From Microgenomates group bacterium (GTDB taxonomy: Bacteria > Patescibacteriota > Microgenomatia > UBA12405): a stretch of 64,000 nucleotides of DNA. A program made the translations under genes and the position numbers. The notes beneath the pieces were generated by a model that did not search any database, was not told the DNA's origin, and saw nothing but the letters and a program-made list of their open reading frames with translations. Location: positions 7,494-71,493 of the forward strand of contig JBAQNJ010000001.1 of NCBI GenBank assembly GCA_049303675.1. The letters are read 5' to 3'. Position 1 is the first letter of the stretch. The number at the start of each line of letters is the position of its first letter. Positions 2,219 through 49,800 of the stretch are shown here, piece after piece.

Positions 2219-4726
2219 CTATGAGCACTTACTATAACCACAATAACTATTTGAACATTTGAAACACCCCTCTTCAGCATACAACGGGCTACCACAATCA
2301 GGACAGGCGCTAAATTTACTCTCGCCATTTGCCAATTTTGTCCTCACATCTTTTAAAACATCTTGTTGTGTACGGGCAATCCCTTGTGGTTGCCCCTCTG
2401 TTATTGGCAGCTCTAATTTATCCTTCTCCCCTTCAAACAAATCCAACTGATCACCCTTGGCTACTTCTAGTAGTGCTTTACCAACAGCATCAAACATACT
2501 CAATGTCACATTTGTCCCAAATCCCGTCCTCTGTCCACAAGATATACCCACCAATTCATCGGCTACTTCTTCCAAATTGGCTCCATACTTGAGAGCCAAC
2601 GATGCCAATCGTCCAGTTACCTCTGCCGACCCCGCCATATAACCACCCGATTTTCCCAAATTAACGAATACCTCCACCGGACCATCTCCATCTTCGAAAA
2701 AGACCGAAGTATATACCTTCCCCGCATCACACACCTTTTGCATCCTCACCCCCCTCGCCGCCTCCGGCGTCTTCTTTTTGTTTTTCTGAGATCTGACATC
2801 TGATATCTGATTTACTTTTTCTCCACTCTTTACTGGTGCAATCACTTCTTTCTCTCTGCTGCCGCTTCTATATATAGTTATCCCTTTTGTCCCCAGTGAA
2901 TATGCCAACAAATAGGCAACTCGGACATCTTCAACTGTCGCCTCCTTGGGAAAATTTATTGTTTTGCTAACTGCATTATCAGTATATTTCTGAAAAGCAG
3001 CTTGAATCCGTACATGCCACTCTGGACTAATTTCCATGGCTGTTCGATACACATTCACCAAATCCACTGGCAATCCCTCCACCCCTGTTAGTTTTCCTCC
3101 ATTATCAACAATTTTTTTCAACAATTCTTCTGTATATAGTCCCCGCTTGGTCAACTCTTGGGTAAACACTTGATTTAACATAAACATTGAGTTCCCCTCG
3201 ACGTTGTTTTTCTGGTATCCCAAGGAAAATGCTGGCTCAATTCCCGATGTGGCATCGGCAATGTAGGATATTGTCCCAGTTGGCGCGATAGTCGTCAGAG
3301 CCATATTCCGTGGCCGATAATTGGTGTTGGCAAATACCGATATCTCCCAAGCCGGAAAAACATTTCGAGTCTTGGCCAATTCTACCGAGGCATTTTTTGA
3401 TTCTTCTTGAATAAATTTCATTACCTTCTCTGCCCAAGCCACACCCTCTTCCGAATCATAGCGGACCCCTAGTTTAAACAACATATCCGCAAAACCCATT
3501 ACCCCTAGTCCAATCCTCCGAGTCTTACTCACCATATCTCGAATTTTTTGGACAGGAAAAACATTCACCTCCACCACATTATCCAAAAAATGGACTGATT
3601 CATGTGTCACCCGACGCAATTCTTCCCAATCGATATCTTTTTGTAGAGACGTGCGATCGCGCGTCTCTACTACAAATCTCGACAAGTTTATTGATCCTAA
3701 GTTACACGCATCATAAGGCAATAAAGGCTGTTCACCGCAGGGATTTGTCGCCTCAATTCGTCCCAATGCTGGCACCGGATTACTACTTGGCTCATTCATC
3801 CGATCGATAAAGACTAATCCCGGATCGCCGTATTGCCAAGCGAGTCGAGTCACTAAATTAAACACTTTATAAGCATTTAATTTCATGGTCACCAGACCTG
3901 TGCGAGGATTAATCAACTCATAACCCTCACCCTCGCTAGTCGCCTTGGCCCAGTCATATAATTTCACCATCCAGCTTTCTATTGTTCGCAGTCTCAAGTC
4001 TACATCGCGTAAAGCTTCGGCCTGCCTAATCTCTTCAACTATCTCTTCGGGGAAATTTTCTTCGGTCACAAATTTTTTGTCTGGTTCAATTTGGTCCATA
4101 AATTTGTTCGTTATGGCCAATGAGATATTAAAATTAGTCAACGAGTATTCATCCAACTTAACTACTGCAAACCGGAGTACATCTGGGTGGTCCACCGACA
4201 ACATGCCCATATTGGCCCCCCGTCGCACCCCACCTTGTTTAATTTGCGAGGTCACATCGTTGTAGGCTTGCATAAATGACACTGGTCCCACCGTCGTCCC
4301 CCCAGAGCTAGCAATATAGTCCCCACTGGGACGCAATCGAGTAAATGAAAAACCGGTTCCACCACCACTCTTGTGAATCTTGGCCATATCCGACATTGTG
4401 TCCAATATCGAGTCCATCGAATCCTCTATTGGTAGGACAAAACAAGCCGACAATTGTTGATTTTTCTTACCGGCGTTGACCAGACACGGAGTGTTGGGAA
4501 AAAATTTTTGCTCTGCCAACATTTTATAAAATGTTCCTGCAGTGTTTTCTGTTTCCAGCTCACTCTTTCCAAAGACAATATCACCCTTAGCAATATTCAG
4601 AGCTACTCTCCAGAAAATATCCTTGACTGTCTCTACTGGCTTACCATCCTCACCTTTCATGGCATAACGCGTTTCGGCGATATAACGGGCGTTATCAGAA
4701 ACTATTGGGTCGATCAAATTTATCAT
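2219..4726 (-). CDS. nrdJ: ribonucleoside-diphosphate/triphosphate reductase, class II (adenosylcobalamin-dependent)
   Basis: 835 aa. Carries the NPCGEQPL...YDACNLGSINL active-site motif typical of class II RNR and a C-terminal Cys-rich zinc ribbon. Confidence 0.9.
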   Translation of the reverse strand: MINLIDPIVSDNARYIAETRYAMKGEDGKPVETVKDIFWRVALNIAKGDIVFGKSELETENTAGTFYKMLAEQKFFPNTPCLVNAGKKNQQLSACFVLPIEDSMDSILDTMSDMAKIHKSGGGTGFSFTRLRPSGDYIASSGGTTVGPVSFMQAYNDVTSQIKQGGVRRGANMGMLSVDHPDVLRFAVVKLDEYSLTNFNISLAITNKFMDQIEPDKKFVTEENFPEEIVEEIRQAEALRDVDLRLRTIESWMVKLYDWAKATSEGEGYELINPRTGLVTMKLNAYKVFNLVTRLAWQYGDPGLVFIDRMNEPSSNPVPALGRIEATNPCGEQPLLPYDACNLGSINLSRFVVETRDRTSLQKDIDWEELRRVTHESVHFLDNVVEVNVFPVQKIRDMVSKTRRIGLGVMGFADMLFKLGVRYDSEEGVAWAEKVMKFIQEESKNASVELAKTRNVFPAWEISVFANTNYRPRNMALTTIAPTGTISYIADATSGIEPAFSLGYQKNNVEGNSMFMLNQVFTQELTKRGLYTEELLKKIVDNGGKLTGVEGLPVDLVNVYRTAMEISPEWHVRIQAAFQKYTDNAVSKTINFPKEATVEDVRVAYLLAYSLGTKGITIYRSGSREKEVIAPVKSGEKVNQISDVRSQKNKKKTPEAARGVRMQKVCDAGKVYTSVFFEDGDGPVEVFVNLGKSGGYMAGSAEVTGRLASLALKYGANLEEVADELVGISCGQRTGFGTNVTLSMFDAVGKALLEVAKGDQLDLFEGEKDKLELPITEGQPQGIARTQQDVLKDVRTKLANGESKFSACPDCGSPLYAEEGCFKCSNSYCGYSKCS
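3643..3670. repeat. REP-like 28-bp palindrome GTAGAGACG-TGCGATCGCG-CGTCTCTAC inside nrdJ (in-frame)
   Basis: Encodes VVETRDRTSLQ within NrdJ. The reading frame is uninterrupted. Confidence 0.8.
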
Positions 4727-5172
4727 TATTTTTTATCAAAACTATTAATTATTTTTTTGTAATCTTCGATATTTTTTATATCCAAATAAATGGTGGCAAA
4801 CCGGACATAGGCCACCGGATCAGTACTTTTCAAAACGTCCATGACTAGCGTTGCAATCTCCTTAGTCGGAATTTCCACGCTTTCCCAATTCAATAATTTC
4901 ATCTCAATTTGATCTATCATTTTCAATCTATCTTCCTCGCCTACCCGCCATAATGCTCGTTCAAAACATTTTTCTAGCTTCTCTCTCTGATAATCTTCCA
5001 CTCGGCCATCTTTTTTAACTACCTTCAACTCTATGTTGCCCAATTTCTCATAAGTTGTGAATCTCTTAAAACACTTGAGACACTCTCTCCTCCTCCGAGT
5101 AGCCTTGCCATCATAGGCATCCCTAGATTCCAGAACATTTGATTCATCATGATTACAATATGGACACAACAT
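4726..5172 (-). CDS. nrdR: transcriptional repressor NrdR
   Basis: MLCPYCNH...RRRRECLKCFKRFTTYE zinc-ribbon N-terminus plus ATP-cone. VAYVRFATIY motif. Overlaps the nrdJ start by 1 nt, i.e. an nrdR-nrdJ operon. Confidence 0.9.
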   Translation of the reverse strand: MLCPYCNHDESNVLESRDAYDGKATRRRRECLKCFKRFTTYEKLGNIELKVVKKDGRVEDYQREKLEKCFERALWRVGEEDRLKMIDQIEMKLLNWESVEIPTKEIATLVMDVLKSTDPVAYVRFATIYLDIKNIEDYKKIINSFDKK

Positions 5173-5222
5173 TTTGAAAAAATTTAAAAATTTAAAAATT
5201 TAATAAACATATTATTGGAAAT

Positions 5223-5263
5223 TGTAGATCTGTAGTTTTGTTATTTACCTCTATATATAGTGG
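5223..5263. promoter_or_regulatory. putative NrdR-box-like palindromes upstream of nrdR-nrdJ
   Basis: ttgtagatctgtag and acctctatatatagtgg lie about 30 bp apart in the AT-rich leader of nrdR. The second resembles the NrdR box core (cAcTATATATaGtG). Confidence 0.35.
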
Positions 5264-5354
5264 ATGTCTTTCATCATACATACCACCAGCAGTGTCCGTC
5301 AACTAGAAATTAGTATCACACACCCAGTCAAATCCAGTTGCTATACTAAACCAA

Positions 5355-5912
5355 ATGAAAAATTTTGAAGCCCATCTTCCTCCACCTGACATTAGAGAAG
5401 GATCATCTATCAGTTATTTTAATCAAACCAAATTAGATATGACCCATGCTGCCATTGGCATAATCATGGCCAATTATATTGATAATAATAGTTCTGTCGC
5501 TATGGACACCACCACTCCCAATATCGGTGAGACGTATCACCAATATTCAGTCAAATATCTAGATGAACAAGGTACCGTTCGCACTGTTTCTATAAAGTAT
5601 AAAGACCATGACAAACTAGACTCAAGCACTGTTTTCAAACAATTATATCTCCAATTTCATGCCGACAAGCTCTCCACTCTCACTCTCGAAGAAATTCGAT
5701 TTGGGGTCATGCGAGAAGATGGTAGCAAATTTGAACCATTTTTCTATATTACCGACCTTCCCTGTGACAAAATTGTCGAAAATCACGATCCCCAAGACAA
5801 AACCAGTAAAACTATTGTTTATCATTCCTCCCAACAAGATCTCGACTCAGCCACACAAGTCCACCATGACTTTCGCCAGTTCGCCGTCGAGAAACTAGGG
5901 TTTAGTGAATAG
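5355..5912 (+). CDS. hypothetical protein (185 aa)
   Basis: Intact ORF with slightly higher GC than its surroundings. Convergent with, and 5 bp from, the CHAT protease gene. Confidence 0.45.
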   Translation: MKNFEAHLPPPDIREGSSISYFNQTKLDMTHAAIGIIMANYIDNNSSVAMDTTTPNIGETYHQYSVKYLDEQGTVRTVSIKYKDHDKLDSSTVFKQLYLQFHADKLSTLTLEEIRFGVMREDGSKFEPFFYITDLPCDKIVENHDPQDKTSKTIVYHSSQQDLDSATQVHHDFRQFAVEKLGFSE

Positions 5913-5917
5913 ATAGC

Positions 5918-7384
5918 TCACAGCTTTTCTCCACTCAAATAATCTTCCCGTTGAGCATAGTGATAAGTTATACCAATAAAATATATAGCCCCTCTTTTTC
6001 TTCTAGCTAAGGAAATTGTATCTAATGAGGAAACATCCCGTGGTCCAACAGCATGCCCACCAGTAAATATACTATAATGCTGAGCAATTCCACCATCAAT
6101 CCCAGTTGAACATGCTGCAAAAGCCACTGGCATTCTCTGACTATAAAACTTTTTCATTTTGTTTGCCGACCTACCATAAAGATCTGCAGTAGTAATAGAC
6201 GAATCAGTATTACCAAAATTACCCAGTTGGACAGAATCAGCTGATCCATGACCAGAAATCACCATAAAAGAAATTTTGTTATTTTCACCGTACTTTTTGT
6301 CCAAATTATAAATTCTTTTAGCCAAACTTGTCTTGTCCCTCGATTCAATTATTCTCATTTTCATTCCCAAAATAGCCGCATCGTCTGAGAGCAAATCTAT
6401 TTTGTCAATATTTTGGTAAAAACTACCATTATAATCATCATAACAACCTACCCAAAGACCATATCCGCTCGATAAATTATCTCTATTGTTCCATTGATCT
6501 ATTAGTATATCCGAGGAATATCTCCCAAAATGGGTTATTCCAAATTGTTTGTATAAGTCCAAAATAACCTGGCTACCAAATTCTTGACTCCGGCTACAAA
6601 TCTCCAAAATAGATTTTATATTTTTCTTAACGGCCCGTCTTAGGCGACCTTTGTAAACCTCATCACCATCTTTATTCAAGAGTTCTCGATTCAGAGTTAA
6701 CCACGAACAAACCACGTCATCAGAAATTTCGACAGGCAGTCCTGCCACCTCGGCCATCAATTTTAGATACGGCTTGATCAATTCACCATGGCTTTCAATA
6801 AATTCATCAGACAAAACAGTATCGATAATTATTTTTTCACCGCCAATGCCCAGTTGCATATGTTCACCCACGCTTTTTCTTAATTTTTCCCCCAATGCAC
6901 CTCCTTCAATCATTCGATCAAACTTAAAGCTCCACAAGCTTTGCCATTCTTTTGAGGACCTCATTTTACTTACGTCACCTATAAAATCAACTTCTTCTTC
7001 CAGAAAACTCTTTGCCTGTTGTTTTAGTTTTTCATCACCATGATCATAACAAGCTGTCATAAGATCAATAGTTTTTACTCTTTGTTGATCCGTCATATCC
7101 AAATCTAATTTTTGTTTTTCAGCTAAATCATCCACATATCTACCCAATACCCACCCGATTAGTTGTTTATCATGCTCATTTTCTAGTTTTGGCAATATTG
7201 AAATCCACGATTTCGCAAAAAAATCAAAATGTTCTACATAATCGTAATCAAACTGTGTCGGACGCAAACGCAAATTAACTCTATCCGTCATTTTTAATCC
7301 CTGATTATTGACTTTATCAGCAAATACGTGAATATTATTCTCACTTGAGAAAATTCGACCCCGCGCCTGTTCCAAACTAATCAT
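5918..7384 (-). CDS. CHAT-domain (caspase-like) cysteine protease with an approx. 300-aa unknown N-terminal domain
   Basis: The C-terminal region has ...FMVISGHGSADS... (His of the dyad) followed approx. 40 aa later by ...VAFAACSTGIDGG... (Cys of the dyad). This is the CHAT/peptidase C14 signature. Confidence 0.7.
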   Translation of the reverse strand: MISLEQARGRIFSSENNIHVFADKVNNQGLKMTDRVNLRLRPTQFDYDYVEHFDFFAKSWISILPKLENEHDKQLIGWVLGRYVDDLAEKQKLDLDMTDQQRVKTIDLMTACYDHGDEKLKQQAKSFLEEEVDFIGDVSKMRSSKEWQSLWSFKFDRMIEGGALGEKLRKSVGEHMQLGIGGEKIIIDTVLSDEFIESHGELIKPYLKLMAEVAGLPVEISDDVVCSWLTLNRELLNKDGDEVYKGRLRRAVKKNIKSILEICSRSQEFGSQVILDLYKQFGITHFGRYSSDILIDQWNNRDNLSSGYGLWVGCYDDYNGSFYQNIDKIDLLSDDAAILGMKMRIIESRDKTSLAKRIYNLDKKYGENNKISFMVISGHGSADSVQLGNFGNTDSSITTADLYGRSANKMKKFYSQRMPVAFAACSTGIDGGIAQHYSIFTGGHAVGPRDVSSLDTISLARRKRGAIYFIGITYHYAQREDYLSGEKL

Positions 7385-10624: not shown

Positions 10625-10652
10625 GTAGAGACGCCATATATGGCGTCTCTAC
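10625..10652. repeat. REP-like 28-bp perfect palindrome GTAGAGACG-N10-CGTCTCTAC
   Basis: gtagagacgccatatatggcgtctctac. The arms are identical to the copies at 2131-2158 and 3643-3670. Confidence 0.8.
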
Positions 10653-19983: not shown

Positions 19984-20334
19984 TTGACTTTTAAGAGAGG
20001 GAGGGAGAGAATAAAGCCAATTATGGACCAAAAACTATCCCCAGAACGAAATGAAGAAATTGCTCAAGGTGGAGTGCCTTGGGATATTGGTAGTATATCT
20101 GCAGTCAAAGCTGATGTATCTGATTTGTTAGGAACAACGCCAATCACTACCGATGATTTATTTTCAATAATGGGAAAAGGATCAGGAGTTCTTACACTTT
20201 AGAAGCTCGTCATGCATTTGCAAAGAAAGCCCTTATATCATTATCAAATCGTGATGATGAACAAGTAGAAGTATTACTTGATTCTGCAGTCAAAACAATC
20301 AATGAACGTCTTGCAGCTGCCAAGAAAACATAAC
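19984..20334 (+). pseudogene. small gene apparently split by a +1 frameshift near 20200
   Basis: The 72-aa ORF stops at 20202, but the +1 frame continues protein-like (EARHAFAKKALISL...ERLAAAKKT*) to 20334 and is preceded by a GGGAGGGAGAG Shine-Dalgarno. Confidence 0.35.
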
Positions 20335-20399
20335 TCTTCTTTTTCTTTTTTTTCTGTTATACTATCCCTTGTCCTACCGAAGACAGCCGGTTTTCTAGA

Positions 20400-20509
20400 A
20401 ATAGAATATAATTCCTGCCGAGGAACAAATTAGATTTTCTAAATCTACGCCTCGTTCTTCGAGGCTTTTTTATTTTACTTTATAAACTTTCAACTTTACA
20501 AACTAACGT
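20400..20509 (+). promoter_or_regulatory. putative L10 (rplJ) leader with attenuator hairpin
   Basis: Hairpins ttcctgccgaggaa and acgcctcgttcttcgaggc followed by TTTTTTATTTT end 33 nt before the rplJ ATG. The position matches the known L10(L12)4 autoregulatory leader. Confidence 0.5.
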
Positions 20510-21028
20510 ATGAAAATCAATAAAACCAACAAAATCGTCAAGGTCGACGATGTCGTCGCCAAATTAACCAGCGCCAAATCCGCCGCTCTCGTCCAATATC
20601 AGGGTCTCAATGCCGCCAAGGTCGTTGCCCTCCGCGACAAAGTCCGTCAAACTGGTGGTACTCTCGAAGTCACCAAAAATTCCCTAATTTTTCGCGCTTT
20701 ACTCAAAATGGGCATCGCCCTACCCGAAGAATTGGTCGGGCCCACTGCCATTGCCTATTCCAACGCCGACGAAGTTGCTCCTCTCAAAGAAATTGATGCT
20801 GTCAACAAAGCTTCCGAAAAAACATTTTTCAAATATGGCATTTATGCGGGCAAACTCTTGTCCCTCGATGAACTCAAAAAATTTATTTCCCTTCCTTCAA
20901 AATCCACCCTCATTGCTCAATTTATTGGTGGACTCAAAAACCCCTTGCAACGTATGGTCTATGCTATGCGCTACAATCAGACTCGGTTAGTCATGACTCT
21001 CCAAGCCATCGCCGACAAAGGCAAATAA
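20510..21028 (+). CDS. rplJ: 50S ribosomal protein L10
   Basis: ...SAALVQYQGLNAAKVVALRDKVRQTGGTLEVTKNSL... L10 family. Confidence 0.9.
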   Translation: MKINKTNKIVKVDDVVAKLTSAKSAALVQYQGLNAAKVVALRDKVRQTGGTLEVTKNSLIFRALLKMGIALPEELVGPTAIAYSNADEVAPLKEIDAVNKASEKTFFKYGIYAGKLLSLDELKKFISLPSKSTLIAQFIGGLKNPLQRMVYAMRYNQTRLVMTLQAIADKGK

Positions 21029-21120
21029 AATTTATAAACATTCTTTATACACCTCATTTTAATTATCAAATCTGAATAAGTTTATTCTAATAAATTATTA
21101 ATTATTATTTAATAAAAAAT

Positions 21121-21504
21121 ATGGATGCAAAATTAACCAAAATCCTCGACCAAATTGCTGAATTATCAGTAATGGATTTATCTGAATTGGTCAAAGCTTT
21201 AGAAGAAAAGTTCGACGTCAAGGCTGTCGCCATGGCTGCCGCTCCCGCCGCTGGTGCTGCTGCCGGTGCCGCTGCTCCTGCCGCCGAAGAGAAGACCGAA
21301 TTTGATGTGGTCATCAGCAATGCTGGTACCAACAAAATCGCTGTCATCAAAGTTGTCCGCGAATTCAAGCCAGAACTCGGCCTCAAAGAAGCCAAGGATA
21401 TGGTCGATGCCGCCCCAGCCACTCTGGGCACCATGAAAAAAGATGCCGCTGCCGAAGCCAAGACCAAACTCGAAGCCGCTGGCGCAACAGTGGAACTAAA
21501 GTAA
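21121..21504 (+). CDS. rplL: 50S ribosomal protein L7/L12
   Basis: N-terminal dimerisation helix, Ala/Pro-rich hinge ([19 protein letters not shown]), C-terminal ...[25 protein letters not shown]... domain. Confidence 0.95.
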
Positions 21505-21531
21505 AAGAAATATTCTTATAATCTTTTAAAT

Positions 21532-21560
21532 ACCCGCCGCAAGGCGGGTGTTTTTGTTTA
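21532..21560 (+). terminator. intrinsic terminator after rplL
   Basis: acccgcc-gcaa-ggcgggt stem-loop followed by gtttttgttt. Confidence 0.75.
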
Positions 21561-21569
21561 TCTTTTCAT

Positions 21570-22100
21570 TTAAAACCCCTCCGGTCCCGCATCTGCGGGA
21601 CCACCTCCCCTTGACGAAGGGGAGCTTTTCAATAAAATCTCTCTTTCTCTAACCACGCTTTCTAATCTATTTCTGACATTATCCAAACCACTCATCAACT
21701 CCCTGCTATTTATTCTAATTGTTAATATATTCAAAATATCAAAATATTTATCTCTCTCATTGTCATAATATTTGTTTCTCAAATGATAGCCTCCGTCAAC
21801 TTCAACAATTAGGAGTAGCTCTGAGCAGTAAAAATCAGCTATAAACTTTCCTATTGGTTTTTGTCTAGTAAATTTGTAACCCAGCCTTCGGTTGTTTAAT
21901 ATTTCATACCACAAAATATTTTCTGTTTTTGTCGAATTAACACGACCTTTTCTAGCTAGGTTTCTCAACGTATCAAGATATTTTAAGTTTTGTCTAGCAG
22001 TCAATGCTTCCACTGGTACTAAATGTTTCACTACGTTATAGTGTTCTGTATTGTCCCCCTTCGTCAAGGGGGATACAGGGGGTTTGTTATAATCCACCAT
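21570..22100 (-). CDS. DUF559 (Vsr-like endonuclease fold) domain protein
   Basis: ...ENILWYEILNNRRLGYKFTRQKPIGKFIADFYCSELLLIVEVDGGYH... is characteristic of DUF559. Both ORF ends run through GC-rich hairpin repeats. Confidence 0.7.
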   Translation of the reverse strand: MVDYNKPPVSPLTKGDNTEHYNVVKHLVPVEALTARQNLKYLDTLRNLARKGRVNSTKTENILWYEILNNRRLGYKFTRQKPIGKFIADFYCSELLLIVEVDGGYHLRNKYYDNERDKYFDILNILTIRINSRELMSGLDNVRNRLESVVREREILLKSSPSSRGGGPADAGPEGF

Positions 22101-22494
22101 GGTTAGGCCAATAACAGAAAGTCAACAGCAAGGCCGTGCCTCCGCTCAAAGAGCCGATATTTATATGCGCCAAGAATTTCTAAATCTCAATTCTCAAACC
22201 CAACAAAAGGTAGTCGATTTACTCAAAAAGATGGATACCATTACCCGTAAACAAGATAAATGGGAAGCCCAAAAACACTTTTTTACCCAAGTTTATAAAC
22301 ATAACCAACCACTAAAAGGACTAATTGTCGACCAAAAGGGCATAGATTGGCAGGAAGTTTGTGACCAAATAAAATATTTCTGTTTTAGTGACCACGACAT
22401 GGAAGGTCTATCCTTAGTCCCCCGTCGAGTCGAACAATCCATCACTACATTTAGTTCACTGATAGAGTTGCCCCACCAAAGAGAGGACTTTTAA
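22099..22494 (+). CDS. hypothetical protein (131 aa)
   Basis: Intact ORF, no motifs. Confidence 0.4.
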   Translation: MVRPITESQQQGRASAQRADIYMRQEFLNLNSQTQQKVVDLLKKMDTITRKQDKWEAQKHFFTQVYKHNQPLKGLIVDQKGIDWQEVCDQIKYFCFSDHDMEGLSLVPRRVEQSITTFSSLIELPHQREDF

Positions 22495-22718
22495 CCTCTT
22501 GCATTTTCTTCTCCCATTATCCATAATCACCTATCAAAAGCACACCTGACACTCAAAAAGTAAGTCTCCAAAAAGTCGTCTGTAAAGAAGGTCATACCCA
22601 CCTCATCGTCACCACCCCTCTCGAAGCCCTAAAATTACGTGTCAAAAACCACTGTCCCACTCCGCCTAAACCAATTCCATTTTTCCCTCGCACTTGAGCT
22701 GCTCCACCACTTCAAAAT

Positions 22719-23807
22719 TTACATCAATTCCGTTCTCTCTTCTGCTAATTTGTCAGTCACCTCTTTAACTTTGTTCGACTTATTTCTAGGTGAAATATAA
22801 ATCGCATCATCTGTCTCCACCACCACTATTTCCTCAATACCCGCCAGTGCAATTAATTTTTTACCCGTCGATAGAACTAAGTTATCTTTACTCTCAATTT
22901 CCAAAACATCACCTTCTATTGATCCCATACTTTTCTCCATCCTATATCGGTAGACATCTTCCCATGTGGTAATATGTGCCCATTCGAAGGGCAATTGAAC
23001 TGCCATTACCTGACCTTCTTTAATCAACTCGGTCGTCATTAACTCGATTCTTCCTTTGTCAAATTTTTGATATATCTCTGCCACTTTTTGTTTTTCATCA
23101 TCTTTACCAAACACCTCTCTCAACTCATTTATTACCTCTAGCCAATCTGGTCGATATTTTTCCACGGCCGCAAAAAACTCTTTTGGTCGCCAAGTTAGGT
23201 GGTTGGTATGAGTGCCCACAATATTTTTACTCGCAATCTCCTGGACTTGTTCCAATGTCATCCGTTCACGTACTACATTGATAAACTCTTCGATTTGGTA
23301 TGCGTTCATTTGTTGACCCAACTCGATCTTGTTGCCCAGTTTCATCAGATCACTTCCAGTTTCCAAATATTTTGGCAATATTGTACCTGTTACCAACTTA
23401 CCCTCCTTTATAACCAATTTCTCTATTTCTTCAATCATATCCAAAAATCTCTCTGTTGGTTCACGAGTGCAAACAGCTTGAACATAAAAGTAGACAACTT
23501 CGTCTGGATATTTGGCAGCTACTTTGGCCATGGCAAAACAAGACGCCGGACCAGTATCCCTAGCCATGGGTTCGATAATATAATTTTCTTTAAGTATATT
23601 TGGCGTTTGCTCTTCAACATAATGCACCAAATCCTCAGTTGTGCTTACAAAAATATCCGCTGTTGAATATTTTTGTAAAAGCGAATCGACGGTTAGTTGA
23701 AACAAAGTTTTCTCACCAATTATTTTTATAAACTGTTTTGGAGCTTTTACTCGGCTTACTGGCCACAACTTACTTCCAGTACCACCTGCCATGATTACAA
23801 ATTTCAT
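22719..23807 (-). CDS. mannose-1-phosphate guanylyltransferase-like nucleotidyltransferase
   Basis: MKFVIMAGGTGSKLWPVSR N-terminal sugar-nucleotidyltransferase motif. 362 aa. Confidence 0.75.
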   Translation of the reverse strand: MKFVIMAGGTGSKLWPVSRVKAPKQFIKIIGEKTLFQLTVDSLLQKYSTADIFVSTTEDLVHYVEEQTPNILKENYIIEPMARDTGPASCFAMAKVAAKYPDEVVYFYVQAVCTREPTERFLDMIEEIEKLVIKEGKLVTGTILPKYLETGSDLMKLGNKIELGQQMNAYQIEEFINVVRERMTLEQVQEIASKNIVGTHTNHLTWRPKEFFAAVEKYRPDWLEVINELREVFGKDDEKQKVAEIYQKFDKGRIELMTTELIKEGQVMAVQLPFEWAHITTWEDVYRYRMEKSMGSIEGDVLEIESKDNLVLSTGKKLIALAGIEEIVVVETDDAIYISPRNKSNKVKEVTDKLAEERTELM

Positions 23808-37248: not shown

Positions 37249-37744
37249 ATATTCAGTCTAGAATGAATTTATGGTTTGTCAAGACAATAATAATCCGGTA
37301 AAAATAATAAATTAGACCTCTAACATTAATTTACTCATCTGAACCTAATTCAGTTTATAGTTTCTACATCCCCATCCTAATAATAACAACTAATTAAGAT
37401 TGTCCGCTTTCATTCAGTTTATATCACTAATAAAATAATTAGCAGTCAACAAACATATCTGCCAAATCCTATCCACAAAATGTTAACATTTGAATATCAA
37501 TTTATACTTTACTGGTACTTTGTATAGAGTAATACAACAATAACAAAACATCCTATAACCAAAATAATCCTCAAATTCATAATCAAGGTATAATAAATAG
37601 ATAAAGTCAATTCGGGCTGTGCCACGTCATAGCCCGAAGGGCGAAGACGGGGACCTGCCTGCCGGCAGGCAGGTTGGCGCAATTTCAGCCATAGGCTGAT
37701 CGGCCTCTGGCCGAGGCTAGCGCAATATAAATAAGCCTAAACAT

Positions 37745-37818
37745 CGGGGATTGGCGCAATTGGCTAGCGCGCACGGTTCGGAATCGTGAGGTTGCTGGTT
37801 CGAATCCAGTATCCCCGA
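37745..37818 (+). tRNA. tRNA-Pro (anticodon CGG)
   Basis: Cloverleaf: acceptor cggggat/atccccg, D arm gcgc-aattggcta-gcgc, anticodon stem cacgg/tcgtg with loop ttCGGaa, T arm gctgg-ttcgaat-ccagt. No CCA encoded. Confidence 0.85.
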
Positions 37819-37892
37819 CCGTGGGTTGCCGTAGCTTTGCGTAGGCACCCTGAGATACTGGATGAGAAATTTATCCGCCTGTGGCGGAAATC

Positions 37893-43035: not shown

Positions 43036-43828
43036 TCTTTTTTAAATAATTATCATCCCGAACTGTTTCTTTTCCCCGAGTACCTTTTTTGTTGCGCAGT
43101 CCCATCGCTAGTTTTTGCGCCCCTTTTTGATCATATTGCTCCACCAACAATCCATCGATAATATGAAATAATTTTGTTGCATACCGCAAATATTCCAAAT
43201 CGTGAGTTACCATTATTACCGTCCGACCTTCGTCCTGATTTAAACTCCGCAATAATTCCATTAGTTCATCACCTGAAACTGTGTCCAAATTTCCCGTCGG
43301 TTCATCGGCCACCAAAATTAATGGATCGATTGTCAAAGCTCGGGCCAAACTAACTCTTTGTTGTTGGCCCGAAGACAGTGAATTTGGGTGATAACCCTGC
43401 CAACCTTCTAGCTTAACTTTCTTCAAGGCTATTAATGCTTTTTCCTCCGACTGCTCCAAACTTAAGCCCCGCAATCTATTTGGCACACACACATTTTCCA
43501 TAACATTTAGGGATTTAATCCAAATTGGTTGTTGAAACACAATTCCAATATTATTTTTTCGATAACGCACAATTCCTTCCTCACCCATAGCATAATAGTC
43601 ATCTCCTTCAATCAATACTTTACCCTCTGTTGGTTTTTCCAGTCCCAACAAAGTATGCAATAGAGTTGACTTGCCACAACCAGATGGCCCAAAAATAACT
43701 GCAAAATCGCCCTTGTTAATTGACAAATCAATCCCCTTTAATACTTCGACCGTCTGGCTACCTACTTCAAAACTCTTTCTTATAGCTGATGCCACAACTA
43801 AATTAGTATTGCTATTTATGTTTTTCAT
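43013..43828 (-). CDS. ABC transporter ATP-binding protein (MacB/LolD-type)
   Basis: GPSGCGKSTLL Walker A, LSGGQQQRVSLARAL signature, Walker B DEPTGNLD. Confidence 0.9.
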   Translation of the reverse strand: MKNINSNTNLVVASAIRKSFEVGSQTVEVLKGIDLSINKGDFAVIFGPSGCGKSTLLHTLLGLEKPTEGKVLIEGDDYYAMGEEGIVRYRKNNIGIVFQQPIWIKSLNVMENVCVPNRLRGLSLEQSEEKALIALKKVKLEGWQGYHPNSLSSGQQQRVSLARALTIDPLILVADEPTGNLDTVSGDELMELLRSLNQDEGRTVIMVTHDLEYLRYATKLFHIIDGLLVEQYDQKGAQKLAMGLRNKKGTRGKETVRDDNYLKKSGKKYVK

Positions 43829-46800
43829 TGTGAAATTTTACCCAATCCTCCGAAAAAACCAAAACTCTTGGATAAACTATTAACCACCAAGTCTAAAGCC
43901 GATTTTGTGGCTTTTGGAGTCACCGTCACATTATCTGCCGATTCAATTTGGTTACCAATTCTATCTCGGGATATTATTCTCAAATGATAGACTTGAGATG
44001 GTTTTAAATCTGTCACTGTCACTACATGATTCATCGTCAAATTGCCATCTTCCTGAGTCCTGTTGGGATAATCAGTCCCAGTTCCTTCACCATACTCAAT
44101 CTGACTTGTTGCCGGCTCATCAGTATTCCAATACACCATTATTTGGGCTTTTGTGACTTCTCCCACTCCATTTATTGCCCCCTCAGCCCTCATATCAGTG
44201 ATTAATGGTGGTCTTAAATCAGCTGATGTCTTAAATTTATTTTGACTAGATTTTGCCTCATTTCCCGCATAATCTTTGCCTTTTACGATTACAATATAAT
44301 CAGTATCATCTAACAAGTCTTTTATTAACAACTGGTGATTTTGGCTCAAAGTTAAGCCAACCTGATCTTTTGTCATTTCCGGCCTACCAGTTGGGTAATA
44401 ACTTACAATCGACGACACACCTGTATTTGTTTTCCAAGAGACCATTATGGTCGCAGTCGACATTCCTTTCACCTGTTGAATTTTTACTCCCTCAATTTTT
44501 GGCATTGGCAAAGTTGAAAATTCATAGTCATCAGAAGTAAATTTATTACCCTCTTCATCTTCAGCCACAATTTTTAAATGATATTTCATTCCCTCCTCCA
44601 AACCATCCAACTTAGAAGTATATGTCGAGGATGAGGTTGAGGTTGTTAACTCAAAAACCGAACCATAAATAGTCGTTTTCCCATATTGAATTGTCGCTTT
44701 TGAAGCATTACTTAATCCAAACTTTACATAAACTGAATATAGGCCAATATCAGTTATACTCACAGTTGAAACTACTGGAGCCGGGTTAGTTGTAAGAGAA
44801 TATTCAGTCGATTCACCTGTATTTCCGTCCTCATCAGTCCACGTCGCTTTATAATAATAAGTAGTTCCCGGATCTAGACCGGTTAGTGCAATTTCATGAG
44901 AAGAGAGTAGTTCAGACGAGCCCACTTCTTCTCCATAACTACCAGCACTCTTCCCATATTTTACAAAAGAATTACCCTTTCGATTGGTTGACCAGCTTAT
45001 TGTTGCCGTCTTTGTCTTAACACTAGAGGTAGGTTCAGCTGTTAATGTCGGCGGTACTCGCCACTTACCATCAGGTAATAACGACACTGTTGAGCTAACA
45101 GCACTACACTCACTCGTCGAGTCACAAGCTTTGACACAATAATAATATTTAGACTGCAATAAATTTGTATCAATAAACGATGTCCCCGTTGTCGATGATG
45201 CGTAGCTAAAATCAGTGAAATCAGAACTACATGATGCACTAGTAGTCGTACTTCGATATACCTTATACGAGGCGATTCCTGACCCACTCGCCTCTGGTGC
45301 ATCCCATGACAGTGCCAGTCGCCAGCTATTTGTTTCCTTTATTGAGACATCTGAGATATCCAAATTACGTGATACCCCTGGAGCCGAGGTCGATGCTTCA
45401 AAATCCAAACTAGCATAATTTTGATATCTACCCTCACTGGTAGATATGTTGCCTGCTTCATCAGACACTACTACATAAATTGTATTTACTCCTTTTCGGG
45501 TAGCATACTGACCCCGACTCAAATATCGAACATTTGTCCCCACTGTAATTACATTTGACGGAGTTGGCAACTCATTAATTGAATATTTGTAGACCAAATT
45601 TGAGGCTGCTCCCAAAAAGCTCTCTGGCTGGTCCCAAGCAAAAGCAAAATCATTTTCACTATTACTAGTTCCCACACTAGGATATGTCAACCGTAAATTT
45701 GTTGGTCGACTGGGTGCCGATCCACTATATTTATAAATTGCTGTCAAATAACTGCTAGCAAAATTCCCTGCTGCATCTTTTACCCGCAAATAAAAAATAT
45801 TTTCATCCGATTGATATTTAGTAATCCCTGTCACCCCAGTTACCCCCACATCAGTAATACATTGTTCATCTGTTGTCTCAGTTTTATAACAATAAGCAGA
45901 TATCCCTGAGGCTGTATCAGTTCCACTTCCCCAAGTAAAAGTAAAATTATCAGTCGTAGTATATCCCGGAGGATCGGCCAAAACAGCCGTTGGATTTATT
46001 GGTGTTTCGTTATCAAATTTATAGACATAAGTTGTTCCAACACCTGCCGTCACGTTATTGGCATTATCAATCGTTTTCATTCGAAAATAATATGTTTGAC
46101 CAGAAGTCAAACTAGTTCCCACTAAACTTGTCGCTGTTGTATAAGTTCCCAAACTCACCGGATCAGCCGTCTCCCCCAATCCAAAATAAACATAATAGCC
46201 CTTTATCCCCGAGCCATTTACCCCGTCACTTGCCCCACTCCAACTAAAAACTGGCGCCGTCGAATTATTCCACACTCCCGATACCACTGTTGAACTATAA
46301 TTGTCGGGATTTATCGGCTCAACCGTATCCTGATAATAGTTAACACTATAACTATTTATTACTCCCGAATGAACACCATTACTAGATGTTAGTCCTAGTT
46401 TTATTTGCAAATACCTGCTTACAGTTGAATTAATTTTATAGCTCTGACTCATCCCTACTGTCTTTTGTTCTGACGCCACCACCCAGTCCCCCCAAGTTAC
46501 ATTATCTGCCGATGTTCTGGTATAAACTGATAAATCAGTATTGCCTGGCATGGTTGTCTCCACTGTCAAAGAAGCAAATTTGTAGACCGCCGTCAAATCA
46601 TAAACCGGAGAAATATAATTTCCACTTTCTTCAAACGAAGAATTGGCCCCCGAAATTACATATGTATACAATCCGTTACCAAAAGTATTTAACTGACCAC
46701 TACCCGCAATCACATAAACTTTATCTCCCGAGGCATCAACGGTGGCCGCCCCTCCTGCTGTAATATACGGTGCCGTTACACTCGATACCAAACTCCAACT

Positions 46801-49800
46801 ATTCCCTGTTATTGAGTACCGATAACAGGTATTTTGATTTCCCCCTCGACAAGCCATTAAATAATCTCCACCTAAATCCACTAGAAAACCATCATTATAT
46901 ATATTTGCCCCCACTGGCAAATCCGCCACCGATACATCCGACCAGGTTGCACCCACTGACAATGGTCCATAGCGAGTAAATCCAAGTGTATTTCCCCCTC
47001 GCAAGGTATAAATATAGTCATTTTTCAACACCATGTCACTCCCATAACTTATGGTCAGACCAGTATTTGGCAAAATACTCCACTTACTTGTCCCCACTCC
47101 TTCAGTATTAAATCGATAAAAAGTTTGTGTCCCCCCACCTCGTAACCAATAAATATATTTATCTGTTGGATTAAATATCATTGAGCTTCCCTCTGCCACA
47201 TCCACTGGCGGTGGATCTCCAATCTCTTCACTCCAACTATCAGATGCAATATCATAAACATAAAATTTACGATAAATATTACTCACTGTCGCATAAATTC
47301 GACTATGAACACTGTCATATACTAACTCCGCCCCTAAATAAATTCCTGCCGGTAAATCGGCCATTTTTGTTGCCACTCCTGTTGCTGAATTATAACGAAC
47401 AAACAAATTATCATAATTTCCCCGAGTTAAATACAAATTATTTCCATCACCCAAAATTATATCCGCCCCATATCCAAAACCTCGACTATCACTCCCTCTA
47501 AACCATCCTCCAAAAACGCCCACTGTCGGTATTAGCCATGAATTTTTAGCAATATTGTACTTATACATCGCCGCCGACCCGCCCCCCGGGGACATATACA
47601 AACTACCGTTAACCATTTTTAATGACGAACCGTTACTTACCCCAATCGGTGTTTCTGCCAACTCGCTCCATGTTTGTGAATTAATATCAAATTTATAAAA
47701 AAAGTTACGTCCCAAACCATTTAAATAATAAAGTGAATTAGTAGCGCCATCATATGTCAATTGCGAACCAGAGCTGGCATATGCCGGTAAATCGGGCAAA
47801 ACCATCCAACTATTTCCCGAAATACTATACGAAGCAAAACCATCACGTGCCCCACCCTGCAAAACATATAATGTATCTGCCCCATCATAAGCCAAATCAC
47901 CTCCATCATTTATCACATTATTTGGTTGGTTAATTGGAGCATTAAAATCAACATTGGCCAGTGTCTCCCACGCATCCGCAATCGTATCATAACGCATCAA
48001 CGCATCATCTCCCGACCCTCTAATCGCGTAAATATATCGACTCCCGTCATATCTCATTGACGCTCCGTACGATATTGTTTGAGTTACATCCGCCGCCGCC
48101 ACATCTGACCAAGTCGTTGTCCCCACATCAAACCGCCAAAAACCATTTGTCCCATACCCCCGCATGGCATAAATATAATTTCCCGGACCTTCAGCCAAAC
48201 CACCCCCATAATAGACCGTCCCCGGTGCCGTTGGTCCCACCGACACCGTGTTGGTTGTCAAGTCATAAATATAAAAAATATTCGATCCATATCCCCTAAA
48301 TAAATACATTTTGTTAGTACTTGCCTTGTACGCCCAGCTTCCTCCGTAATATATTCCTGCTGGCAAACTGGAAATCCGTTCCTGCTCCCAAAATCCCGGT
48401 TTACTCAATAATTTCATTTGATCACCACTCAAATCAAAATTACTAGTTGTCCCCAAACCAAAGTCCGAAGTTAGTGATTTTGTCAACGTTAATGGTGGGG
48501 AAATTCCATTATAGTTATACACAAACCCCGTCATTGCCGCTGAAGTATTACCCACTCCATCCACCGTTACTAGCCGTAAATAATACGGTAACTGATCCAT
48601 CGGTGTTGTTACTACATAATTACTCAATGTTTGATAATTACCCTCGACAACCGGATTTGCACTTGACCCAGTTCCAAAATAGACATAATAACCAGCCACC
48701 GAAGTTTCTGGGTCAGTCGCCCCCACAAAACTAAAATATGGTGATTGATAATCATAATTTTCTCCAGAAGTTAGACCAATTCCTGCAACTTGTTGCGACA
48801 TCCCAGTTATCACATTTGGTCCAATTGGCACTCCTGTATCTCCCACATAATTCACTGTCACCCCCAGTAGTGACGGAGTTTGACTCCCATCACTTGTCGA
48901 CACCATAGTCACACCTATTTGCAAATAACGTAAAGGTGCACTTCCAATACTACTTCCCACTCCAGCCACCCAATCAGTCCAAGTTACTTTGTCACTACTA
49001 CTCCGCGTTGCAAAACTTATTGACGAGTCTCCCGGCAAGGTTGACTGGATTTGTAAACTACTCCAAGATGCCACATAACCAAAATCAATTGCACTGCTTG
49101 TCCACCCCCCACTACTCGGGTAATTACCCGCATCTACAGTATAAGTTAATAACCTAGTTACCCCGTTACCCAAAATCACATAAAAAGTTCCATTTCCTAA
49201 AGATTCAATTGACGCCCCAGCCCAAGGTCCAATTTCCGTCGGACCATAATCTTGAGTCGGCGCCAACCTTCGCCAACTAGCGCTGGCAATTGTATATTCC
49301 CAAAAATCCGGTTTGTAATATCCAGCCAAAAAGTATAATTTACCATTGTAATAACTCACATCTGACCCATAATAAGGCGCAAACGGTATATTTGAAATTA
49401 CTGACCAAGTAGTAGTCCCAACTGTGTATTTATAAAGTTTGCTCATTCCACTCCCTGGCATGTAATAAATATCAGTCCCATCTGACGCTAATCTAGCTCC
49501 ATAACCAGCCTCCGCATCATCGGGTAAATCCGTCGCCGCCGCATCACTCCACGTTTCCCCCACCCCAATCGTATATCGCCAAAATGTCCGAGTTAGCGCC
49601 CCCCGAGTCGCATACAAATAACTTCCACTTCCCGGATAAATAATTGATGCCCCATAATTTACCGTCGAGGGAGTTCCCAATAAATTTGTCCAAGTGCCTC
49701 CCACCCCTACTGATGGGTCAAATTTATAAAAAGCTGTCGTCCCTATTCCTCTTAAATAATAAAAACTACTACCAATATTGATTCCCTTAACATCATCACC

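Follow-up and report, generated by a model that had tools for sequence, protein, structure and literature searches.

A DUF559 nuclease gene between inverted three-block repeats downstream of rplL in a Microgenomates bacterium, and its possible REP/RAYT-like partnership

Downstream of rplL in a Microgenomates group bacterium (GCA_049303675.1, contig JBAQNJ010000001.1, positions 7,494 to 71,493), a small nuclease-fold gene of the DUF559 family lies between two inverted copies of a GC-rich hairpin, which raises the question of what ties the protein to the repeats at its two ends. The whole stretch analysed, called the window below, comprises 64,000 nucleotides with a G+C content of 40%. The segment 21574-22084 was read as one copy of a widespread unit, made of a DUF559 gene and three-block repeats, in a partnership resembling that of repetitive extragenic palindromes (REP) and REP-associated tyrosine transposases (RAYT) and sedentary at this locus; a probability of about 0.5 is given to this reading.

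To begin with, the two hairpins reported by the first-pass annotation, CTCCCCTTgacgAAGGGGAG at 21605-21624 and TCCCCCTTcgtcAAGGGGGA at 22054-22073, were recovered, and their 16-nt cores (CCCCTTGACGAAGGGG and CCCCTTCGTCAAGGGG) were perfect reverse complements with the pattern CCCCTT-N4-AAGGGG. With up to one mismatch allowed, CCCCTTNNNNAAGGGG had only these two matches in the 64 kb, where 0.11 were expected and two were reached in 1 of 100 shuffles; the additional copies that the annotation had proposed to look for were thus absent from the window. Eight perfect GC-rich hairpins with stems of at least 7 bp were found in the window, three of which flanked the DUF559 gene, and the third hairpin, GGTCCCGCatctGCGGGACC (21583-21602), stood beside the 3′ one and encoded 'PADAG'. 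Since each main hairpin had a mirrored third block, the inverted repeats span about 21574-21624 at the gene's 3′ end (RE) and 22054-22084 on its 5′ side (LE).

In particular, the RE main hairpin, CTCCCCTT-gacg-AAGGGGAG (21605-21624), was translated as SSPSSRGG in the C-terminal tail of the protein. It was followed, after a spacer of 23 nt, by a third block on the minus strand (21574-21581; GAGGGGTT on the gene strand), which was an exact mirror of the G-arm AAGGGGAG (8/8) and encoded ...EGF, with the stop codon TAA (21570-21572) coming next and closing the RE. The spacer held a hairpin of its own, GGTCCCGC-atct-GCGGGACC (21583-21602), with a DNA folding energy of -17.8 to -19 kcal/mol and z of -4.6 to -4.9, computed for Watson-Crick pairing only. 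The LE main hairpin, TCCCCCTT-cgtc-AAGGGGGA (22054-22073), was non-coding and was kept in relatives and in solo copies. Its third block, AGGGGGTT on the plus strand (22077-22084), read AACCCCCT on the gene strand, within AAACCCCC, and mirrored AAGGGGGA in 8/8 positions across a spacer of 3 nt, the plus-strand order being AAGGGGGA, TAC, AGGGGGTT. Read along the gene strand, the LE was therefore AAACCCCC-TGTA-TCCCCCTT-GACG-AAGGGGGA, followed by a leader of 22 nt (22032-22053, minus strand), in frame in the window genome only, and then by the gene, while the RE was CTCCCCTT-CGTC-AAGGGGAG-GT-[hairpin]-CG-GAGGGGTT-TTAA. The grammar was the same at both ends: a pyrimidine C-arm, a loop, a purine G-arm, a spacer and a G-block mirroring the purine arm.

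Such a grammar is that of the BoxC/PIT/intrastrand-triplex repeats, and both LE and RE, with arms of 8 nt and third blocks matching in 8/8 positions, conformed to their block definition. The published search for triplex repeats used stems of 6-15 nt with at most one mismatch and loops of 1-6 nt (PMC4666352). The LE lay within this loop limit of Holder et al. (loop 4, spacer 3), and it was exceeded by the RE spacer of 23 nt with its own hairpin and also by the RE spacers of 12-13 nt in three relatives (L083-L085). Neither repeat was covered by an Rfam family: when 20000-23500 was scanned by E value, the L10 leader alone exceeded its gathering score, and a gathering-score scan of 12 related loci gave no matches.

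The third block bears on a first alternative, in which the hairpins are regulatory or insulating structures (a terminator, an mRNA stabiliser or an operator pair) of an ordinary repair nuclease that has no relation to them at the DNA level. A terminator has no need of a mirrored third block, yet this block was conserved and co-varied with the stem, the stem difference between LE and RE (GGGGGA vs. GGGGAG) being mirrored in their third blocks (AGGGGG vs. GAGGGG), which would not be required of a plain terminator hairpin. The hairpin at 21605-21624 with the adjoining CTTTTC did score as terminator-like on the plus strand, and the gene is convergent with rplL, lies between transcription units, and is fixed, single-copy and under purifying selection; moreover, palindromes of this kind could bind a dimer. 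Against this, the 5′ copy had no T run on either strand, solo copies were found far from any DUF559 gene, the stems lacked the freely covarying pairs that a purely structural RNA element should have, and PIT elements had no promoter or terminator activity in E. coli, according to the earlier work cited in PMC4666352. A purely regulatory role is hence considered decidedly unlikely.

The protein itself is annotated as a coding sequence of 153 aa on the minus strand (NCBI call P0001; 21570-22031, stop included) with a GTG start at 22031 and a Pfam domain at about 21660-21968. The over-long minus-strand open reading frame (ORF) of 21570-22100 comprised 176 aa and was not on record in that exact form, because the annotated start is the internal GTG. 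Its assignment to DUF559 was borne out by a match to PF04480 at residues 45-147 (82.8 bits vs. a gathering cut-off of 20.6; E 1.9e-23; profile positions 3-105 of 109), and NCBIfam PRK09767 was matched under its equivalog cut-off. The idea that the 5′ hairpin supplies the protein N-terminus had to be abandoned: the gene starts at the GTG at 22031, 22 nt inside the LE hairpin, proteins of the relatives started with (M/V)KH(L/V)VP, and two of these (L082 and L084) had in-frame stops between the LE hairpin and the start codon. At the other end, the last 14 residues were encoded by the repeat. The tail is predicted to be disordered, with a predicted local distance difference test (pLDDT) score <50 at 140-153 in the AlphaFold (AF2) model, and is best read as an incidental translation of the repeat, in which there are no stop codons.

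The AlphaFold model had a mean pLDDT of 85.7 and matched the structure of NGO0050 (3HRL) with a Foldseek template modelling (TM) score of 0.92 and a root-mean-square deviation of 1.4 Å. The match to the I-Bth0305I domain (3R3P) was weaker (probability 1.0, TM 0.73); the nuclease domains of PvuRts1I and AbaSI were also similar, and Vsr only weakly so. Residues R30, T34, F54, R56, Q57, D66, F67, E77, D79, G80, H83, D90 and R93 were invariant or nearly so among homologues; D66, E77, D90 and R93 were invariant, and D79, G80 and H83 were conserved in at least 90%. The conservation of D66, E77, D79 and H83 and the modelled agreement with 3HRL make it likely that the enzyme is active. NGO0050 and E. 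coli YcjD are direct homologues (phmmer E 2.6e-15; 32-35% identical) whose genes both adjoin three-block repeats, the window protein adding an N-terminal extension of 20 aa and the repeat-encoded tail. As a separate observation, the DUF559 fold also matched several ciliate and apicomplexan mitochondrial ribosome proteins (6z1p_AS and 9i05 chains; probability 0.96-1.0), and these ribosomes have evidently taken up the fold.

Vsr, DUF559 and the I-Bth0305I type have been classed together (Steczkiewicz et al. 2012, PMC3424549, group 58), and several more specific identities were considered for the protein. Vsr shares the fold superfamily and the catalytic-type D...ExD...H arrangement, but Vsr proper was rejected, as Pfam returned only DUF559 (no PF03852), the Foldseek E value for 1VSR was 6 and no methyltransferase gene lay within 10 kb. 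I-Bth0305I shares the catalytic-domain fold, and both are small nucleases of a selfish-gene kind; that enzyme sits in a phage group I intron, whereas the DUF559 gene is free-standing, bounded by inverted repeats and nearly absent from phage records. A homing endonuclease of this type was not accepted, given the free-standing gene, a phmmer search without a match to 3R3P at E <=1 and a similarity at the level of the fold. An anti-phage defence protein was likewise rejected, PADLOC giving only a partial, weak mREase_II match (E 3.4e-5, over 67 residues of a 294-position model).

The first-pass annotation had taken the locus for a small nuclease cassette with terminal repeats inserted at a synteny breakpoint. 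The cassette anatomy stood, and the insertion did not, since the position proved to be shared. In the five closest homologues that could be placed on contigs (from P0002-P0007; 67-77% identical), the DUF559 gene was convergent on rplL-rplJ in every case and, where the contig extended far enough, genes for a nucleoside triphosphate (NTP) transferase and a 2-hydroxyacid dehydrogenase followed on its other side. Identity to the window was 84-94% for rplL and 77-91% for rplJ; compared with L082, it was 73% for DUF559 and 68% for both enzymes, and these similar values indicate that DUF559 diverged in step with its neighbours. Pairwise ratios of non-synonymous to synonymous divergence (dN/dS) ranged from 0.04 to 0.18, with saturated dS (>1.5), and by this comparison of sequences the gene is under purifying selection. 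Despite such saturation, the LE and RE stems and third blocks were nearly invariant in the five relatives, with varying loops, and the invariance of the RE extended to third codon positions. The RE main hairpin kept its stem and varied in its loop, the third block was kept in all relatives as GGAGGGGTTTT(A/G)A, and the spacer position always held a hairpin of variable sequence and length (GGCC-gaa-GGCC in L084 and L085; longer in L082). On the 5′ side, conservation stopped at the LE third block. Another Microgenomates-group metagenome-assembled genome (contig JBAQFH010000001.1, GCA_049287145.1) had identical compared DUF559 flanks and neighbouring proteins with 100% identity. This shared neighbourhood was confined to the close clade, homologues at <=50% identity not being adjacent to rplL. 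Judged from these alignments, the unit is old, vertically inherited downstream of rplL and maintained by selection, and is no recent insertion. Most of what the annotation had named as refuting its reading, namely an orthologous position and shared flanks in the relatives, was thus observed.

Further copies of the repeat were found among the relatives. In L084 (94-795), the DUF559 gene ended at about 530 and was followed by an ORF of 33 codons and a second RE copy at 706-750; the 233-aa protein P0007 recorded for this contig could not be translated from it with table 11, the gene call having read through a TGA. In L085 (1700-1775), the LE was missing upstream, where the NTP-transferase gene abuts the DUF559 gene, and was found 58 nt downstream of the RE in the same reading direction, an RE-then-LE order that is the arrangement of E. 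coli inverted BoxC pairs. These rearrangements show that the locus does undergo change.

Inverted repeats around a gene may also act as an invertible switch, recombining with each other and flipping the DUF559 segment in a programmed inversion. 'DUF559 domain-containing protein' was indeed enriched (odds ratio 14.3) among predicted targets of such inversions (Milman et al. 2023), and the window repeats are inverted and overlap the end of the coding sequence. Yet gene orientation relative to rplL was identical in 6 of 6 genomes, namely the window and all five relatives, and no recombinase gene or domain was found within 10 kb. The enrichment is expected for any coding sequence that overlaps one arm of an inverted repeat, and the flanking inverted repeats would thus explain why DUF559 genes score as programmed-inversion targets. 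A switch of this kind is considered very improbable.

The association was then followed in 80 distant loci, taken from species-representative genomes, whose DUF559 proteins were 30-56% identical to the window protein in the best-matching segment and which spanned Bacteroidota, Patescibacteria, Ignavibacteria, Chloroflexota, Firmicutes, Cyanobacteria, Alphaproteobacteria and others. In 40 of the 80 loci, the domain had hairpins with a pyrimidine arm and a purine arm on either side, many pairs having complementary loops (gata/tatc, ggac/gtcc, gtgt/acac, cctc/gagg and aaaa/tttt). At least one flank contained the three-block motif in 60/80 DUF559 loci and both flanks did so in 37/80, vs. 37/343 and 6/343 for control ORFs from these loci (Fisher p ~1e-24). 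Moreover, the flanks contained 3.0 motifs per kb, vs. 0.14 per kb outside them, and the association was present in 10-13 of 16 sequence clusters. With the window and four relatives included, 43 of 84 loci had upstream and downstream flanks that aligned with each other as 20-60 nt inverted repeats, scoring well above shuffled sequences, typically with the form ACCTCACCCC-nn-CCCCTCTCC-nnnn-GGAGAGGGG. Among 207 strand instances, a perfect third block was found 79 times as a mirror of the arm, 25 times as a direct copy and 8 times for a shuffled arm, and the stems were of the pyrimidine-arm/purine-arm kind in every lineage. Chance as the source of the pairing was rejected by the shuffles, the control ORFs, the mirror-rule counts and the Fisher test. 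Cultured examples included Deinococcus aetherius, with a textbook LE-gene-RE arrangement, and motifs also occurred at Azospirillum lipoferum 4B, N. gonorrhoeae NGO0050 and Synechocystis. A universal rule in which the third block is always distal to the gene was discarded, as it held in the window clade and in Deinococcus and failed in E. coli, Neisseria and several Bacteroidota. The architecture of a nuclease gene with terminal repeats nevertheless holds family-wide.

Furthermore, gene and repeats behaved as one unit with discrete boundaries. Four Chitinophagaceae copies in unrelated contexts could be aligned only from GCCCCTAAATCCCCTAAAGGGGACTT to its inverted partner, their outer flanks being unrelated. 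In L014, an internally deleted derivative, in which the 5′ leader was joined to the gene's 3′ end between the repeats, lay beside a full copy. Two DUF559 paralogues within one genome carried different repeat arms (L030/L069 and L039/L073). In addition, a repeat-encoded C-terminal tail was present in 44 of 75 homologues, mostly in one shared frame (SPxKG...EGF), with SSPVKGRIEEGF, CSPVKGSC, PLPCQGKG and SPSSRGGG..PEGF as examples; the junction between gene and RE therefore looks ancestral rather than repeatedly re-created.

The repeats also occurred without the gene. The window LE motif was found at 15 loci of metagenome contigs, 14 of which had no DUF559 gene nearby; these solo copies lay in low-GC contigs with varied neighbours, some at orthologous positions in related contigs. 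Across the 80 loci, 23 distant hairpins shared the arm of the local DUF559 repeat, vs. 8.5 expected and a permutation maximum of 21, which is a modest signal.

Many copies are nonetheless fixed in place. In one Bacteroidota clade (Chitinophagaceae and relatives), the unit lay between trpB and trpA inside the tryptophan operon, after trpC/trpF and on the same strand (L026, L027, L035, L038, L056, L063, L064 at 4644-7181, and L080), with flanks of 72-80% DNA identity across genera; the trp genes were assigned by Pfam in L064 and by DNA homology of the flanks in the other loci. On a Patescibacteria contig (L058, 3-5464), a stretch of 5.5 kb contained three DUF559-like segments, all on one strand. 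Finally, a Eubacteriales contig (L009) presented a dense repeat field with more than 12 pyrimidine/purine hairpins over 12 kb, at least five of which shared the arm GCTCCCCT with the DUF559-flanking ones.

The same pairing was found in E. coli, where ycjD ends inside a BoxC of which strain TC_EC10 has the full length and K-12 an eroded form (L087 5030-5850, equal to K-12 1351030-1351850; L089 590-1430). Downstream of it came a duplicated remnant of the gene 3′ end with a degenerate BoxC, similar to the deleted derivative of L014, and then BoxC copy no. 9 of the table of Holder et al., 170 nt from ycjD, an adjacency with a chance of about 0.003. The sequence of copy no. 9 was the same as that of three dispersed copies. 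The discovery reference for BoxC in Holder et al. is the envM paper (Bergler et al. 1992; PMC4666352). The gene next to ycjD is fabI, which we take to be the same gene as envM; in that case, BoxC was first described from the copy that adjoins ycjD, a DUF559 gene. In MG1655, 23 BoxC/TM_ECO copies are known, with five inverted pairs, every one of which combines an 'A' with a 'B' subtype (Holder et al. 2015, PMC4666352), and the TM_ECO loci were described as rearrangement hot spots of raised variability whose neighbouring genes had no common function (PMC4666352). According to PMC12817139, ycjD fills the gap between sapF and fabI, where other phylogroups carry the eefRABCD efflux operon. The gene was missing from about 38% of complete E. 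coli genomes, and a clean empty site was rejected, as strains without ycjD hold eefRABCD at that place.

These observations bear on a further alternative, in which the BoxC-type repeats exist independently, as elements in their own right or as structural hot spots, and a homing-type DUF559 gene lands in or next to them, or they preferentially accumulate around the gene. Solo repeats and inverted repeat pairs without the gene favour a landing site, as do the fold relationship to the homing endonuclease I-Bth0305I (PMC3424549), the rearrangement hot spots at repeat loci in E. coli (PMC4666352), the replacement of the eef operon by ycjD in some phylogroups and the variable orientation of the repeats around the gene. 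Repeated independent landings, however, would not be expected to keep the junction between gene 3′ end and repeat in 44 of 75 homologues, mostly in one frame, nor to give paralogues in one genome each its own arm sequence. Moreover, the third blocks of the E. coli inverted pairs face inwards, opposite to an occupied site that had been emptied. This explanation, although the foremost of the alternatives, is considered unlikely.

Compared with known systems, the window repeats come closest to BoxC/PIT/TM_ECO (Bergler 1992; Hoyne & Maher 2000, 2002; PMC4666352), which have the same three-block grammar with loops of 3-6 nt and some A->T changes in the mirrored G-block. Both are GC-rich intergenic sequences, present either alone or in inverted pairs that comprise two subtypes, and in both the stems are conserved and the loops variable. 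In contrast, the window arm is CCCCCTT rather than CCCTC(G/T)CCC, the RE spacer has 23 nt with an extra hairpin, and the two copies in 64 kb bracket a gene. Neither the gene family nor the repeat type is new, and it is their association that is absent from the searchable literature: full-text searches, with subscription-only papers excluded, found no paper linking DUF559 or YcjD to BoxC/PIT/TM repeats or to flanking inverted repeats, or these repeats to any enzyme, papers on these repeats did not mention ycjD or an endonuclease, and the consulted part of the paper on the ycjD locus (PMC12817139) did not mention the repeats.

The likeness to REP/REPIN and RAYT lies in a single-copy, vertically inherited, selected gene of the nuclease type between inverted short structured repeats that are also dispersed, with different paralogues going with different repeat sequences. 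The DUF559 gene itself is single-copy in the window, vertically inherited and flanked by inverted repeats, the dispersal of the repeats being seen only in other genomes. The RAYT-REP pattern was reportedly set out by Nunvar in 2010, by Bertels and Rainey in 2011 and by Ton-Hoang in 2012. Action on the repeats has been demonstrated for a RAYT, not for a DUF559 protein. Moreover, a RAYT is an HUH Y1 transposase of the IS200/IS605 kind, while DUF559 has a PD-(D/E)xK, Vsr-like fold, and REPs are simple imperfect palindromes, while DUF559 repeats are three-block mirror motifs. Membership of the REP/RAYT system was accordingly rejected because of the fold, the window unit being an analogue and not a member.

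As in an insertion sequence (IS), terminal inverted repeats enclose an enzyme gene, and the size of about 0.5 kb, the hairpin-containing ends, the deleted derivatives beside full copies and the site just after terminators recall IS200/IS605 elements and miniature inverted-repeat transposable elements. Unlike these, no recent multi-copy spread was seen, and the window copy has been immobile over long evolutionary time. Classification as an insertion sequence or transposon was rejected on the lack of target duplication, the one copy in the window and the same position in five relatives (contexts in other clades being unrelated). To our knowledge, no IS family among those of ISfinder uses a DUF559 protein. 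Phages and plasmids were also rejected as the spreading route: of 50,697 phage records only 3 contained relatives, and of 72,556 plasmid records only 39, with mostly large replicons among the plasmid matches listed.

The preferred reading of a REP/RAYT-like partnership was drawn because the coupling has discrete boundaries, cognate arms, solo copies and a long vertical retention under selection. In the proposed mechanism, the DUF559 nuclease would recognise its cognate three-block repeats, probably as folded hairpin or triplex DNA arising from single strands or by cruciform extrusion; a folded form is suggested because the grammar, and not any one sequence, is constant across phyla. The nuclease would then nick or cut at the repeats, and the nicking may create, move or maintain them and destabilise their loci, while the gene itself would stay parked between two ancestral ends. 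Binding or cleavage of the repeats by the protein, and any mechanism of mobility, are what we infer by analogy. The recurrence of the DUF559-BoxC-type pairing across many phyla, including E. coli, suggests that DUF559 is the missing partner of the repeats. The wider claim that DUF559 proteins (YcjD, NGO0050 and the window protein) are the enzymes behind the BoxC/PIT/intrastrand-triplex repeats, as a second, independently evolved REP/RAYT-like system, is put forward tentatively and at less than even odds.

Several points weigh against this partnership. In the window, which is about 6% of the genome, the repeat occurs only at the two ends of the DUF559 gene itself, and the unit is immobile both in this clade and in the Bacteroidota trpB-trpA clade, and neither the window clade nor the Chitinophagaceae copies had an evident target-site duplication where the unit ends. 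The 80 loci were selected by similarity, are partly related and were scored with a home-made motif finder; 20 of them had no motif, and the third block was not oriented towards the gene in a uniform way throughout the family. BoxC-like matches were also present in E. coli strains that lack ycjD. Furthermore, the TM_ECO triplex forms in vitro and was not detected in vivo (PMC4666352), no link of TM_ECO to mobile elements was found (PMC4666352), and the above-mentioned inactivity of PIT elements as promoters or terminators counts here as well.

With regard to the surroundings of the unit, an L10 leader (RF00557; 20359-20480, 46.3 bits in the Rfam scan) preceded rplJ (20510-21028) and rplL (21121-21504), both on the plus strand. 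An intrinsic terminator of rplL (21528-21563, plus strand) had a stem of 11 pairs at 21528-21553 followed by the T run TTGTTTATCT, in agreement with the first-pass annotation, and the cassette begins about 10 nt past this T run. The absence of rpoB-rpoC after rplL was corroborated, as no ORF of their size with RNA polymerase domains was found in the 64-kb window; rplJ-rplL stand alone, and in the relatives rpoBC was not adjacent to rplL either. No large ORF lay directly upstream of rplJ, the small upstream ORFs not having been checked for rplK or rplA. Outside the unit, an orphan ORF of 131 aa (22099-22494, plus strand) was divergent from the DUF559 gene; it had no Pfam or PADLOC match above threshold and was missing from the relatives, and its ATG overlaps, inside CCATGG, the ATG of the 176-aa DUF559 reading.

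Elsewhere in the window, a perfect 22-nt palindrome, GAGACGCCATATATGGCGTCTC (10628-10649), was unrelated in sequence to the DUF559-flanking repeats, and an ORF of 2384 aa (43825-50979) with Kelch repeats, fibronectin type III domains and a purple-acid-phosphatase N-terminal domain encoded a giant surface-type protein. A cluster of small GC-rich palindromes (37620-37700) lay about 70 nt upstream of tRNA-Pro (37745-37820) and included the perfect palindrome CCTGCCTGCCGGCAGGCAGG at 37654-37673. Its core, CCTGCCGGCAGG, was also inserted in the RE spacer of L082, with a similar one in L051, and these palindromes look like a second small palindromic repeat family able to nest inside the first.

The BoxC/PIT/TM repeats, first reported in 1992, are present in the genomes of hundreds of bacteria, where the loci that they mark are unstable, their origin, partner and function having had no explanation so far, while DUF559 is a very large nuclease-fold family without a known function; if the two are paired, each would explain the other. 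In practical terms, for genome annotation, the odd 'SPxKG...EGF' tails and 'PLxKG' heads of DUF559 ORFs would be explained as translated repeats. If the partnership is true, the LE-gene-RE unit of about 0.5 kb would rank with the smallest known self-contained units that are, or once were, mobile, and a structure-specific PD-(D/E)xK nuclease would join the short list of repeat-propagating enzymes. Finally, a Vsr-fold nuclease would then nick folded three-block DNA, spread or maintain the repeats and drive the rearrangements at their loci.

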